Shown here piece by piece: positions 9,501 through 15,500 of a DNA stretch of 23,484 nucleotides. Position numbers: made by a program. This DNA is from a virus (taxonomy: Duplodnaviria > Heunggongvirae > Uroviricota > Caudoviricetes): IMG/VR virus record IMGVR_UViG_2687453582_000002; one strand, written 5' to 3'. How positions within the stretch are numbered: the stretch's first letter is position 1; each line of letters opens with the position of its first letter.

Positions 9501-12500
9501 AAGGCGATGGCTAAACCAGCGCGAAGACGATGTAACCGTAAAAGAGAAGATTTAACTGTTAAAAGGATATTTGAGTTACTAAGTTTCGATAAATCTACCG
9601 GGGTATTTAGATGGAAAGTTCCCACTCAGGGAAGGATAGCATTAAATAGTGTTGCTGGAGCTTTTGATTCCAACGGTTATTCAATGATCATGATAGATGG
9701 GCGTAGATATAAAACTCACGTCTTAGTTTTTTACATAACTCATAATCGTTGGCCTGCTGGTCAAATTGACCACGTTAATGGAATTAGGACCGACAATAGG
9801 CCAGAAAATTTAAGAGAATGCCTGCCAATAGAAAATTCAAGAAATATAAGGATCCGAAAGAATAGCAAATCAGGTTGCAGAGGGGTTACTTGGCACAAAC
9901 GACAGAAAAAATGGAATGTTAGGCTAGGATTCCATGGCAAGAGTAAACACTTCGGATGCTTTGATGATCTGGAGTTAGCGGTACTAGTTGCTGAAGAAGC
10001 CCGAGATAAGTATTACGGTGATTTTTCCGGCAACGAAAGGAGCACTTATGCGAATCTATCGAAGGAAATGTAAATGTTGCAATGAATGGTTTATACCAAA
10101 ATATCAAAATCAATATTGGTGTAATGAGATTTGTGGAACCAAGATAGCACTCGAACGACGAAGTAAAGAACGCGAAAAAGCGGAAAAGGCAGAAAAGGCA
10201 GCAGAGAAGAAACGACGACGAGAGGAGCAGAAACAGAAAGATAAACTTAAGATTCAAAAACTCGCCTTAAAGCCCCGCAGTTACTGGATTAAACAAGCCC
10301 AACAAGCCGTACACGCCTTCATCAGAGAAAGAGACCGCGACTTACCATGTATCTCGTGCGGAACGCTCACGTCTGCTCAGTGGGATGCCGGACATTACCG
10401 GACAACTGCTGCGGCACCTCAACTCCGATTTGATGAACGCAATATTCACAAGCAATGCGTGGTGTGCAACCAGCACAAAAGCGGAAATCTCGTTCCGTAT
10501 CGCGTCGAACTGATTAGCCGCATCGGGCAGGAAGCAGTAGAGGAAATCGAATCAAACCATAACCGCTATCGCTGGACTGTCGAAGAGTGCAGGGCCATCA
10601 AGGCGGAGTATCAACAGAAACTTAAAAAACTGCGAAACAGCAGAAGTGAGGTTGCATGAATATCTACGAAAGAATTGATGGCAGCAAATACCGAAATATT
10701 TGGGTAGTTGGCGATCTGCACGGATGCTACACGAACCTGATGAAAAAACTGGAGACGATAGGATTCGACACCAAAAAAGACCTGCTTATCTCGGTGGGCG
10801 ATTTGGTTGATCGCGGTACAGAGAACGTAGAATGCCTGGAATTAATCACATTCCCCTGGTTCAGAGCTGTACGTGGAAACCATGAGCAAATGATGATTGA
10901 TGGCTTATCAGAGCGTGGAAACGTCAATCACTGGCTGCTTAATGGCGGTGGCTGGTTCTTTAATCTCGATTACGACAAAGAAATTCTGGCTAAAGCTCTT
11001 GCCCATAAAGCAGATGAACTTCCGTTAATCATCGAACTGGTGAGTAAAGGAAAAAAATATGTCATCTGCCACGCCGATTATCCTTGTGATAAATACGAGT
11101 TTGGAAAGCCAGTTGATCATCAGCAGGTAATCTGGAACCGCGAACGAATCAGCAACTCACAAGACGGGATCGTGAAAGAAATCAAAGGCGCGGACACGTT
11201 CATCTTTGGTCATACGCCAGCAGTGAAACCACTCAAATTTGCCAACCAGATGTATATCGATACTGGCGCAGTGTTCTGCGGAAACCTCACATTGATTCAG
11301 GTACAGGGAGAAGGCGCATGAGACTCGAAAGCGTAGCTAAATTTCATTCGCCAAAAAGCCCGATGATGAGCGACTCACCACGGGCCACGGCTTCTGACTC
11401 TCTTTCCGGTACTGATGTGATGGCTGCTATGGGGATGGCGCAATCACAAGCCGGATTCGGAATGGCTGTATTCTGTGGTAAGCACGAACTCAGCCAGAAC
11501 GACAAACAAAAGGCTATCAACTATCTGATGCAATTTGCACACAAGGTATCGGGGAAATACCGTGGCGTGGCAAAGCTTGAAGGAAATACTAAGGCAAAGG
11601 TACTGCAAGTGCTCGCAACATTCGCTTATGCGGATTATTGCCGTAGTGCCGCTACGCCGGGCGCAAGATGCAGAGATTGCCACGGTACAGGCCGTGCGGT
11701 TGATATAGCCAAAACAGAGCAGTGGGGGATAGTTGCTGAGAAAGAGTGCGGAAGATGTAAAGGCGTCGGTTATTCAAGAATGCCAGCAAGCGCCGCATAT
11801 CGCGCTGTGACGATGCTAATCCCAAACCTTACCCAACCCACCTGGTCACGCACTGTTAAGCCGCTGTATGACGCTCTGGTTGTGCAATGCCACAAGGAAG
11901 AGTCAATCGCAGACAACATTTTGAATGCGATCACACGTTAGCGCCATGATTGCCACGGATGGCAACATATTAACGGCATAATATTGACTTTTTGAATAAC
12001 TTTGGGGAAACTTGACACCAATAATGGGCGTTTTTTACATGTCATTGATGAGTCTCAATAACCTGCCGCCGAGTAGTTTTTATGCTCTGAATTGTATTTG
12101 TGTAGTAAACATGCTGACTGCAATGTAATAGAGTTTTTTTAGCCTGTAACCTCTTGACGGCATTGAATTGCTTTTGTTATGAGTTGTAAGCCAATGTTAT
12201 CATCTTGTATTGGGGTGGTTATGAAGGATGGTGCGCTGCTCAGGAGTTCTTCACTTTTTATTGCCTACATGGGATGCCTTGGATGGGGGAGTGCTTATTT
12301 CTATGGATGGGGTACTTCTTTTTACTACGGCTTCCCATGGTGGATTGTAGGTGCAGGTGTTGATGATGTTGCCAGAAGTTTATTTTTTGCAGTTATCGTC
12401 ATTGCTATATTTCTTATCGGTTGGGGTATTGGTGTTGTATTCTTTTTCGCAGTGAAAAGAAAACATTCTATGCAAGAGCTAAATGTATTTCGCCTTTATT

Positions 12501-15500
12501 TTGCTGTGGAATTATTGTTTGTGCCGGCAATTATTGAGTTTTCTATATTGAGACAGAAGATTCAGGTACCTCTTTTGCTACTGTCAGCAGCGATTGCGCT
12601 GGCGGTCACAATTTCGATAAGATCTTATGGGCGATTTTTATCGGTATCATGCTTCTATGATAAGCCATTTATAAAAAAACATTTTTTTGAGATTGTGATG
12701 ATTGCTTTTGTGGCATATTTCTGGCTTTTTTCATTTCTGACAGGATATTACAAACCGCAGTTTAAGAAAGAATATGAAATGATTAATTATAATGATGGTT
12801 GGTATTATGTTCTTGCTCGTTATGATAATTGTCTGGTTTTGTCTACTTCTTTCAATGCAGGTAGTAAAAGGTTTGTGATTTATCAATCAGCACAAGATAA
12901 GAATCTTCAGGTTGATATTGTAAGGACCAGAATTTAATTGGCTGCATAAATAATATTTTAAGTTGCAAGTTGGCTATTCGTAGGAATAGAACCTTAGGCA
13001 TGCTGAATGCGTTTTCTGAACATTGTTTTATAAACTGTGTCTGCTTGCTGTTGTGATCCTGCTTTTAGTGATGGTGATGATGGATTTCACCAGCAGGATA
13101 ATGTTGGTACTGACTGATGGCGCTCTGGTCTGCGGCATTGTGGTATTGCTGTGGCCGGTGATAAAAAGAAACAGCCTGCATAATGCTTGATTTTTTTGTT
13201 TACTGTTTATTAAAAATACTACTGCATGGTGAATCCCCCTGTGCGGAGGGGCAATCAGCAACCAGGTATATGTGATAATCGCGGATTCAGGTGCTGATAC
13301 TGAATTCACCGGGAGGCACCCGGCACCATGCAAGAAAAAGAATGTGCATGCAAACATGCCCCTCTCCGGAGGGGCATTTTTTATGGGTAAAAAATGCCCG
13401 AATGGGTTCGGGCAATAGCATGAGATACTGATATTGTTGTGTTGTTATCGTGTGGATTTTAACCAGGGTTTATCAGGCTGCGCAACTGCGTGGCCTTTTT
13501 TCATTTCTTGGGCTGTAGTCCCCGTGTGTCATTCAGGCTTCCGGACTACAGCCCACTCCATATCTGATTTAATACACTATCCCGGCCGGGAGGAATAATG
13601 ACATTTAAACATTATGATGTTGTCAGGGCGGCGTCGCCGTCAGACCTTGCGGAAAAGCTGACACACAAACTGAAAGAGGGCTGGCAGCCGTTTGGTAGTC
13701 CGGTGGCCATAACCCCTTATACCCTGATGCAGGTGATTACAGCAGAAGGTGATGTGGTGGTCAGTGGTGCAACTGAGCCGGATTGGTACTACGTCATCGT
13801 ACTGGCCGGGCAGTCCAATGCCATGGCTTACGGTGAAGGGCTTCCGCTGCCGGATTCATACGATGCTCCGGATCCGCGCATTAAACAGCTGGCGCGCCGC
13901 AGTACAGTTACGCCGGGTGGGGCTGCCTGCAGATATAACGATATTATTCCGGCCGACCACTGCCTGCATGATGTGCAGGATATGAGTACGCTGAATCATC
14001 CGAAGGCAGACCTGAGCAAAGGGCAGTACGGCTGTGTCGGCCAGGGCTTACATATTGCCAAAAAACTGCTTCCGTATATCCCGAATAACGCGGGGATCCT
14101 GCTGGTACCATGCTGTCGTGGTGGTTCGGCATTCACCCAGGGCGCGGAGGGGACATTCAGTGCGGACGCGGGGGCCAGCCAGGATTCGGCGCGCTGGGGT
14201 GTGGGTAAACCGTTATATCAGGACCTGATTGCGCGCACTAAAGCTGCATTACAGAAGAACCCGAAAAATGTGTTGCTGGCGGTGTGCTGGATGCAGGGAG
14301 AGTTTGACATGAGCGCCGCCACCCACGCACAGCAACCTGCGCTGTTTACAGCCATGCTGGCACAGTTTCGTGCTGACCTCTCCGTGTTTAACGCGCAGTG
14401 CCATGGTGGCAGTGCTGCAGATGTGCCGTGGATTTGTGGTGACACGACGTATTACTGGAAAAATACCTACGGCACCCAGTACAACACCATTTACGGGGCG
14501 TACAAAAACAGGGAGAGTGAGGGCGTTTATTTTGTGCCCTTCATGACAGACGGTAACGGCGTCAATACCGCCACTAACGCGCCGGCAGAAGATCCGGATA
14601 TTCCGGCATCAGGATATTACGGTGCGGCATCGAGAACGAATGGAAACCAGGTATCATCAAACCGCCCGACACATTTCAGTTCATGGGCGCGCAGGAGCAT
14701 TATTCCGGATCGTATGGCAACCGCTATTCTGAACGCAGCCGGGCGCACCTCAGCCTTCATCAGTGGTAAGGCACCGGAAATCAAACCCTCGCCCGGCGGC
14801 AACACGCCATCGGGTCCGTCTGCAGATACGTCCGTTCGCACAATCTCCCTGCTGCCGGCAGCCGGAGAGGCTGCTGCGCAGGGCTGGAGCATTAAGGATG
14901 GCGGAATTCAGTTGTCAGATGGTGTATTTAAGATCACCAGGCAGAGCAATAAAACCTGGTCCCTGACGCATCCGGTGGATGACGCAATTACCCTGCTGAC
15001 ACAGGGCGGCAGACTGACCTGTAAGTTCCGCCTGTCAGGCGCACTGACCAACAATCAGTTCGGGCTGGGGATTTATCTGTATACGGATGCTCCCGTTCCT
15101 GATGGTGTGGCGATGACGGGTACCGGTAATCCGTTCCTGATGTCGTACTTCACTCAGACCACTGACGGCAGAGTGAATCTGATGCATCACAGGAAAGCCG
15201 GAAACACGAAGCTGGGGGAGTTCGGCGATTACGGTAACGACTGGCAGACGCTGGAGCTGGTGTTCACCGCCGGCAGTGCCACGGTTACTCCGAAACTGAA
15301 TGGAGTGGCTGGCCCGGCATTCCAGGTTATAAAAGACAGTATGACACTGGGACTGAATGCGCTGACGCTGACGGATGTTACAAAAAATGCAGCGTATGGC
15401 GTTGAGATAGAAAGTCTGGTGCTGGAGATAAATGCACCGGCATCATCATAAAAAGTGAGCCAGTCAAATGGAAGGTATCGTTAAACTCACCGGTAGTGTC

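Follow-up and report, generated by a model that had tools for sequence, protein, structure and literature searches.

Which gene takes the place of the Shiga toxin (Stx) genes when a lambdoid prophage keeps the late-region order of an Stx-converting phage and carries no stx? This question is raised by the virus record IMGVR_UViG_2687453582_000002 of IMG/VR (Caudoviricetes), a stretch of DNA of 23,484 nucleotides, which was analysed at its full length and is called the window hereafter. The original prediction for this DNA had pointed to the interval 11942-13597, where an AT-rich membrane protein was seen in the position occupied by stxAB in Stx phages, and had placed its expression under prophage induction, with a lysis modulator, a superinfection-exclusion or abortive-infection protein, or a toxin-like factor as possible roles. 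Our data show that the interval is a cargo ("moron") slot located 3' of a Q-dependent late promoter and that it holds four separate small genes: a large protein-coding gene, a small DUF3927 gene and two genes for small RNAs. The large gene encodes an inner-membrane protein of the STM1630/TfpB family, which is catalogued but uncharacterised, and we give about an even chance to its being a self-contained lysogenic-conversion gene that acts alone at the cell envelope.

The borders of the slot were first compared with those of lambda and of the Stx-converting phages. Upstream, a lambda-type antiterminator Q is encoded at 11318-11941 on the plus strand (Pfam Antiterm, 4e-58), and it shares 202 of its 207 residues with lambda Q; at the DNA level the window is 96.1% identical to lambda over 11318-12016, and the similarity stops near the start point of pR'. 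Alignment to lambda pR' places a pR'-type late promoter at 11984-12030 on the plus strand, with a -35 TTGACT (11984-11989), a 17-nt spacer, a -10 GAAACT (12007-12012; TAAATT in lambda) and a -10-like pause element AATAAT at 12020-12025 (AACGAT in lambda), and this element would function as pR' in the window. Downstream, the slot is bordered by a nanS-p-type sialate O-acetylesterase gene at 13598-15451 (plus strand; Pfam DUF1737, SASA and DUF6645), followed by a phage-21-type class II holin gene at 15601-15816 (plus strand; Pfam Phage_holin_2_1, 3.5e-32), which is the PGAP coding sequence within the open reading frame (ORF) 15496-15816. The order Q, late-promoter-like region, cargo, nanS-p and holin announced by the original prediction is therefore present. 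The guanine + cytosine content is 36.5% for the large ORF, compared with 50.8% for Q and 55.3% for nanS-p, so that the interval has two of the features by which a moron is recognised, namely an insertion between conserved neighbours (pR' and nanS-p) with a deviating base composition.

That the slot corresponds to the stx position was likewise borne out. The Stx1 phage BP-4795 has Q followed by stx1A and stx1B, then DNA homologous to window positions 13222-13597, then yjhS (nanS-p) and S, and stx1AB thus fills the same place as the window cargo. In line with the original prediction, no stxA- or stxB-like gene was found by ORF or Pfam analysis in 11942-13597; the order Q, pR', cargo, nanS-p and lysis cassette is common to the window and to the late region of Stx-converting phages, whereas stxA and stxB are not. 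The site 3' of pR' is known to tolerate morons, with convergent small RNA (sRNA) genes in Sp3, 4, 5, 9, 10, 11, 15 and 17, and in Sp5 the same site carries stx2 (Tree et al. 2014, PMC4104026). The O157:H7 sites described there, together with Sp5 and BP-4795, likewise show Q, pR', cargo, a convergent sRNA pair, nanS-p and holin; compared with the Stx-phage sites of O157:H7, the window carries a membrane protein and a DUF3927 peptide instead of toxin genes, and does so in a remnant prophage. In contrast to the described post-pR' sites, no tRNA genes are found in the slot of the window. The type of slot and its two sRNAs have been previously described and are ordinary; the large cargo gene is the subject of the analyses below.

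The large ORF is present at 12179-12937 and had been read as a 252-aa protein from a start at 12179, PGAP using the start at 12194 (247 aa). About 60 full-length homologues of 236-240 aa all begin at the methionine matching position 12221 of the window, and this start is preceded by the Shine-Dalgarno sequence GGGGTGG; on both counts the product is probably a protein of 238 aa (12221-12937, plus strand), so that the AT-rich membrane protein of foreign composition stands, with a probable correction of its length. The ratio of nonsynonymous to synonymous substitution rates (dN/dS) was 0.05-0.17 against six orthologues, taken from E. albertii, another Escherichia sp., a plasmid of enterotoxigenic E. 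coli (ETEC), Shigella pWR501 and Salmonella. Judged by these substitution rates, the large ORF is a genuine gene under purifying selection.

A first homology search gave 104 homologues, and an exhaustive profile search of 1.84 billion cluster representatives returned only 72 matches at E <= 0.001, indicating a narrow family. Its Enterobacteriaceae members belong to E. coli, Citrobacter, Cronobacter, Klebsiella, Enterobacter, Salmonella, Yersinia and Mangrovibacter, and its distant members to Neisseria, Conchiformibius, Uruburuella, Actinobacillus, Avibacterium, Gallibacterium, Mannheimia, Pasteurella and Rodentibacter; all members found in the profile search are annotated as "hypothetical". 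The precomputed Pfam label of the cluster of identical sequences, and of every homologue, is PF27470 ("TfpB"), the protein matches PHROG 1521 (1.9e-154), the function entry of which is "unknown", and the newest PGAP records name the product "STM1630 family protein" on E. coli DNA of 99.7% identity. No match for the large ORF was obtained in NCBIfam, in PADLOC (E <= 0.1) or in the copy of Pfam used, from which PF27470 is absent. A profile search against the sequences of the PDB yielded nothing but noise, as did weak-match scans with Pfam for 54 members of the family. The homology and structure searches proposed by the original prediction hence delivered a family, and no relative of known function. 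The gene is found in 754 of 5426 complete E. coli genomes (coverage >= 80%), in 679 of them at >= 99% identity. The original prediction had considered that the ORF could turn out to be a widespread, characterised phage gene; it is widespread and catalogued, but its family is not characterised.

To describe the protein, a structure was predicted with AlphaFold2 from an alignment of 54 sequences (pLDDT, the predicted local distance difference test, 82; pTM, the predicted template modelling score, 0.75). The model shows five long helices (residues 3-36, 47-79, 84-111, 116-137 and 149-181) and a five-stranded C-terminal domain (187-232), and hydropathy analysis is consistent with these helices. 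Since, by hydropathy and charge, the basic loops 77-91 and 134-154 would be cytoplasmic, the predicted topology has the N-terminus inside and the C-terminus outside, with five membrane helices and a beta domain of about 55 residues that would lie in the periplasm. The best-conserved part is an N-terminal aromatic/glycine segment (NSS..A....GW..AY.YGWG...YYG.PWW......ARSL.Y.), which is common to the proteins from E. coli through Neisseria. In the alignments the whole family shares one architecture of about 235-250 aa, with the N-terminal aromatic/glycine motif, the five helices and the C-terminal beta domain.

The relatives were then compared for their genomic contexts. Phages 434 and 2B8 carry the gene at the same position as the window, before a SASA esterase and a pinholin, and have the same gene pair (CPT_434_68, a putative membrane protein, and CPT_434_69, TciB, in phage 434; gp58 and gp59 in 2B8), with about 97% DNA identity over window positions 12060-13252. 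Unlike the window, phage 434 has a Q82-like antiterminator and has kept the terminator hairpin before the gene intact, and it is without the STnc100/AgvB segment of the window, the homology ending at 13252. In prophages with a 933W-type Q, an allele of 68% identity lies between a DNA methylase gene and LpxR/PmrD/nanS-p (contigs L028-L030, 7001-9505). In these prophages the slot gathers envelope-related cargo, that is the 68% allele, LpxR (lipid A deacylase) and PmrD.

Outside phages, a 59% allele is located on ETEC plasmids at 866 bp from eltAB, the genes of the heat-labile toxin (LT), in divergent orientation, and is recorded on 908 contigs. On ETEC contig L003 the family gene is at 6001-6714, with eltA at 4358-5134 and eltB at 3987-4361, both on the minus strand, and contigs L004-L007 and L023 are similar; the ETEC copy has insertion sequence (IS) elements on its flanks, and STb or EAST1 nearby. 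By this arrangement, the LT locus may include a fragment of moron DNA of lambdoid-phage origin. In Shigella, a 57% copy is found on the invasion plasmid pWR501 (135269-135985; contig L022, 6001-6717) in an IS-bounded islet, and in 106 Shigella plasmids of PLSDB. The pWR501 copy adjoins a 138-aa ORF with a signal-peptide-like N-terminus and without a Pfam match. Another allele, of 57% identity, adjoins iroB, iroC and iroD of salmochelin, and about 2 kb further downstream comes a homologue of bor/iss (contigs L024-L027, 7001-7714); in Neisseria animaloris, Avibacterium and Mannheimia the gene stands between unrelated housekeeping genes. In every setting the family gene is a single unit and its neighbours are different each time; as shown by this comparison of gene order, the gene is self-contained across contexts.

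Published data exist for the Salmonella orthologue. On contig L008 the gene lies at 6001-6717 between sseJ (4349-5575, minus strand) and steB (6846-7247, minus strand), and sseJ is STM1631. Since steB is STM1629 (PMC4219756), the gene between the two corresponds to STM1630. The STM1630 protein belongs to the same family as the window protein, with 46% identity and the same length and architecture, but its gene is part of a chromosomal islet and not of a prophage, and has neither DUF3927 nor the sRNAs as partners. STM1630 is listed with the genes of Salmonella pathogenicity island 2 and the pag genes among co-regulated virulence genes (PMC2639726). In strain D23580 its level is reduced during macrophage infection (10.1101/450098), and in this strain, which belongs to sequence type 313, two single-nucleotide polymorphisms in the -10 of the STM1630 promoter silence the gene (10.1101/689075). 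One screen gave a hypermotile phenotype for STM1630 (PMC4219756).

To better understand when the cargo gene would be expressed, the DNA between pR' and the gene was examined for transcription signals. A consensus scan found a promoter-like element (TTGTTA, 18-nt spacer, TG-n-TATCAT) at 12174-12203 on the plus strand, which could act as the promoter of the cargo gene. Its -35 is kept in phage 434, E. albertii, Escherichia sp. and the ETEC plasmid copy, and similarity at the DNA level with the ETEC copy starts at 12150, indicating that this upstream piece moves along with the gene. In phage 434, the hairpin between the late promoter and the gene (contig L001, 3980-4007) has a folding energy of -13.7 kcal/mol (z = -2.3). 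The homologous segment of the window, at 12060-12085 on the plus strand, is a decayed remnant of this terminator hairpin: its 5' arm and loop carry substitutions, a 4-base gap and a substitution delete the 3' arm, and it folds no better than shuffled sequence. No terminator-like site was found by scanning the plus strand in 11800-13356, and the first terminator after pR', which is also the first downstream of the cargo gene, is that of STnc100 at 13356-13382.

Lambda pR' is active in lysogens, its transcript normally stopping at tR'. With the hairpin lost and no terminator before 13356, transcripts from pR' would be expected to continue through the cargo gene and the DUF3927 gene up to the STnc100 terminator. 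The predicted read-through and the gene's own promoter-like element make expression in the lysogen, without induction, at least as likely as the expression on induction that had been proposed first. The latter claim is weakened by the decay of the prophage, the conservation of the promoter-like element in non-phage copies and the lack of a terminator between pR' and the gene.

The large gene is accompanied by a DUF3927 gene in the prophage slot only. This second gene, at 13023-13190 on the plus strand, encodes a small TciB-like membrane protein of 55 aa from a TTG start at 13023 and is a PGAP coding sequence in EDL933; the protein matches DUF3927 of Pfam (1.4e-13, over positions 7-51 of the 55 aa) and PHROG 1470 ("TciB-like", 2.7e-19), "TciB" being here a label given by homology and not a demonstrated function. 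The 39-aa hydrophobic ORF at 13071-13190 noticed earlier is the C-terminal part of this gene. DUF3927 was rejected as an obligate partner of the large protein, as it is absent beside the Salmonella, Shigella-plasmid and iro-island copies and is found without the large ORF in another phage. A 109-aa ORF on the minus strand (13028-13357), which overlaps both DUF3927 and STnc100, had no support and was also discarded.

The strong terminator (13356-13382) and the neighbouring hairpin (13394-13411) reported in the original prediction are both present, and their reading can now be completed with Rfam, for which the gathering thresholds were used (47 bits for RF02076 and 56 bits for RF02702). The sRNA STnc100 (RF02076) was matched in full length on the plus strand at 13198-13388, the terminator at 13356-13382 included, with 144.7 bits against the threshold of 47, and its terminator hairpin (-21.4 kcal/mol) has a z-score of -3.0 relative to shuffled sequence. 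STnc100 may be an RNA derived from the 3' untranslated region of the cargo transcript. Its start lies 8 nt past the stop codon of the DUF3927 gene, and a promoter-like site of its own was not detected. On the opposite strand, the anti-GcvB sRNA AgvB (RF02702) was matched in full length at 13389-13450, its terminator at 13414-13395 included, with 96.5 bits against the threshold of 56; all 62 of its 62 bases are those of the Rfam consensus, the GcvB-mimic CACAACA is present, and its terminator hairpin has a z-score of -3.8 relative to shuffled sequence. AgvB is known to block GcvB and to favour growth in mucus of the bovine rectum (Tree et al. 2014, PMC4104026). As shown by these Rfam assignments, the two are convergent known sRNAs, and the two hairpins correspond to their terminators. 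Upstream of nanS-p, the consensus scan alone gave a second terminator-like hairpin at 13475-13506 on the plus strand. The region upstream of AgvB (13451-13506) contains on the minus strand TTGCGC, 18 nt and TAAAAT, overlapping the plus-strand hairpin at 13475-13496.

The host of this slot is a decayed lambdoid prophage remnant adjoining ssrA in E. coli O157:H7, and we take it to be Sp17 of strain Sakai (OI-108 of EDL933). The slot (11942-13597) is 100% identical to O157:H7 genomes, for example EDL933, and the full window is collinear with the EDL933 region bearing espW, an nleG-like gene and espM2, with differences in IS elements only; the end of the window holds ssrA (transfer-messenger RNA, 22425-22787) and smpB. 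One AgvB copy (EcOnc01b) has been assigned to Sp17 (Tree et al. 2014, PMC4104026). The cI/N/O/P early region was not found in the window, neither immunity nor early replication genes being present upstream of the nin region, and no structural genes were found in the prophage. The holin is followed by a YdfR/DUF1327 gene (15818-16165) and by an endolysin gene (16216-16446) truncated by an IS66-family element; of the endolysin, 219 bp are left before the IS66-type and IS1203 elements that cut it.

Taken together, these data are in agreement with an envelope or host-adaptation role that we infer for the cargo gene. In the lysogen the gene would be transcribed from its own sigma-70-type promoter, and pR' would probably add read-through, since the terminator standing between late promoter and gene in phage 434 has been destroyed here. 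The protein would work without a dedicated partner at the interface between inner membrane and periplasm, where it would change a property of the envelope that is useful in an animal host, and it would be neither a toxin nor a part of the lysis machinery. Several observations weigh against such a role. No relative of established function was found, either by fold or by sequence, and no experiment ties any family member to a phenotype: the deletion of STM1630 did not lower replication in macrophages (10.1101/689075), and its hypermotility was not among the phenotypes confirmed on re-test (PMC4534456). Conserved polar residues are few, which does not point to an enzyme. The promoter was recognised by consensus alone, and matches of this kind, 3 against 4.9 expected in shuffled sequence, were no commoner than by chance. 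Finally, the association with virulence loci, striking as its recurrence is, could merely mirror shared AT-rich mobile DNA.

Several other roles were considered for the protein. As a superinfection-exclusion or bacteriocin-immunity protein, it would block the entry of phage DNA or neutralise a membrane-acting toxin and so shield the lysogen. A small polytopic inner-membrane protein encoded by a prophage moron and likely to be expressed in the lysogen is in agreement with this hypothesis, as are its single-gene autonomy, which suits orphan immunity or exclusion genes, and the neighbouring DUF3927 protein, whose annotation as TciB-like ("resistance to colicin") comes from homology alone. We nevertheless consider it unlikely: neither for superinfection exclusion nor for the abortive infection proposed at the outset was positive evidence obtained, PADLOC having given no match, and many copies reside in non-phage, core-chromosome settings. 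Moreover, such proteins usually diversify with their targets, whereas the present one shows a low dN/dS and an N-terminal motif kept from Enterobacteriaceae to Neisseriaceae, for which a fixed target fits better than an arms-race partner. The same long-kept orthologues, under purifying selection outside phages, also disfavour a lysis or a toxin role. A late product made only after Q antitermination, like nanS-p and the holin, and modulating lysis or virion release would be consistent with the place of the gene in the late transcript, after pR' and before the lysis cassette, and with the terminator that precedes it in phage 434, where Q would raise its expression. This role, suggested by the original prediction, is very improbable, as solitary relatives persist on plasmids, in islands and in core chromosomes, away from any phage or phage lysis, as the gene is still intact here and identical in hundreds of genomes while the endolysin and the early region are lost, and as no likeness to holins, antiholins or spanins was found in Pfam or PHROG.

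A membrane-damaging abortive-infection or toxin-like effector is brought to mind by the glycine-zipper-like repeats of the N-terminal helix (GWGSAYFYGWG), which resemble those of some pore formers. We regard this proposal too as having hardly any likelihood, given the absence, in all contexts, of a sensor or a cognate antitoxin as partner, the lack of a PADLOC match, the strong purifying selection with stable carriage across many lineages, and the LB (lysogeny broth) growth of the STM1630 deletion mutant, which was not significantly different (10.1101/689075). The name of PF27470 raises a further hypothesis, that of a type IV pilus accessory protein resembling the TfpY/FimB-like pilin chaperones. 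The TfpY/FimB-like proteins, found in mucosal Proteobacteria, also combine a membrane anchor with a periplasmic beta-rich C-terminal domain (PMC11841053), which the membrane helices and the predicted beta domain of the large-ORF protein recall in their general plan. In contrast, those proteins are always linked to a pilin gene and have three membrane helices (PMC11841053), where the large-ORF protein has five. No pilin gene was found nearby in the more than 10 contexts examined. The gene tfpB itself is an ORF of the Moraxella pilin inversion region, and no Moraxella sequence was among the matches of the homology and profile searches. A literature search gave nothing usable on TfpB, on DUF3927 or on the Moraxella pilin-inversion ORF, and a pilus function appears quite improbable. 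The envelope role of a self-contained lysogenic-conversion gene is thus the reading that we retain.

Elsewhere in the window, type III secretion system effector genes lie between the IS-disrupted lysis cassette and ssrA (18846-21406): espW at 18846-19904 and an nleG-like DUF1076 gene at 19983-20633, both on the minus strand, and espM2 at 20816-21406 on the plus strand. Relative to EDL933, the window has an additional IS3-family (IS1203-like) copy at 7584-8894, with an ALIL pseudoknot inside at 7920-8036, and an unlike IS junction at 17702-18013, which indicates that it comes from an O157:H7 strain that is related to EDL933 but not the same. The hexanucleotide TATTTC is perfectly repeated, in 12.8 copies, at 9236-9312, with a remnant of IS30 on one side and, on the other, the HNH endonuclease gene that belongs to the nin region.

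For the family as a whole, we advance only tentatively, and as a proposal that we consider unlikely, that it is a hitherto unnoticed type of single-gene inner-membrane factor with its own fold, which travels with toxin and effector cargo on mobile elements of enterobacteria and has either a specific host-related envelope function or a new one-gene exclusion function. If it were merely hitch-hiking with AT-rich DNA, the finding would be a detail of annotation. What gives it its interest is that a conserved membrane protein, under selection and structurally unmatched, recurs beside virulence cargo, at the stx position, at the LT locus, on the Shigella invasion plasmid, between sseJ and steB, and at iro. 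If it does serve envelope adaptation, the fitness of toxin-bearing elements or phage exclusion, it would offer an inexpensive, testable single-gene target in about one seventh of the complete E. coli genomes.

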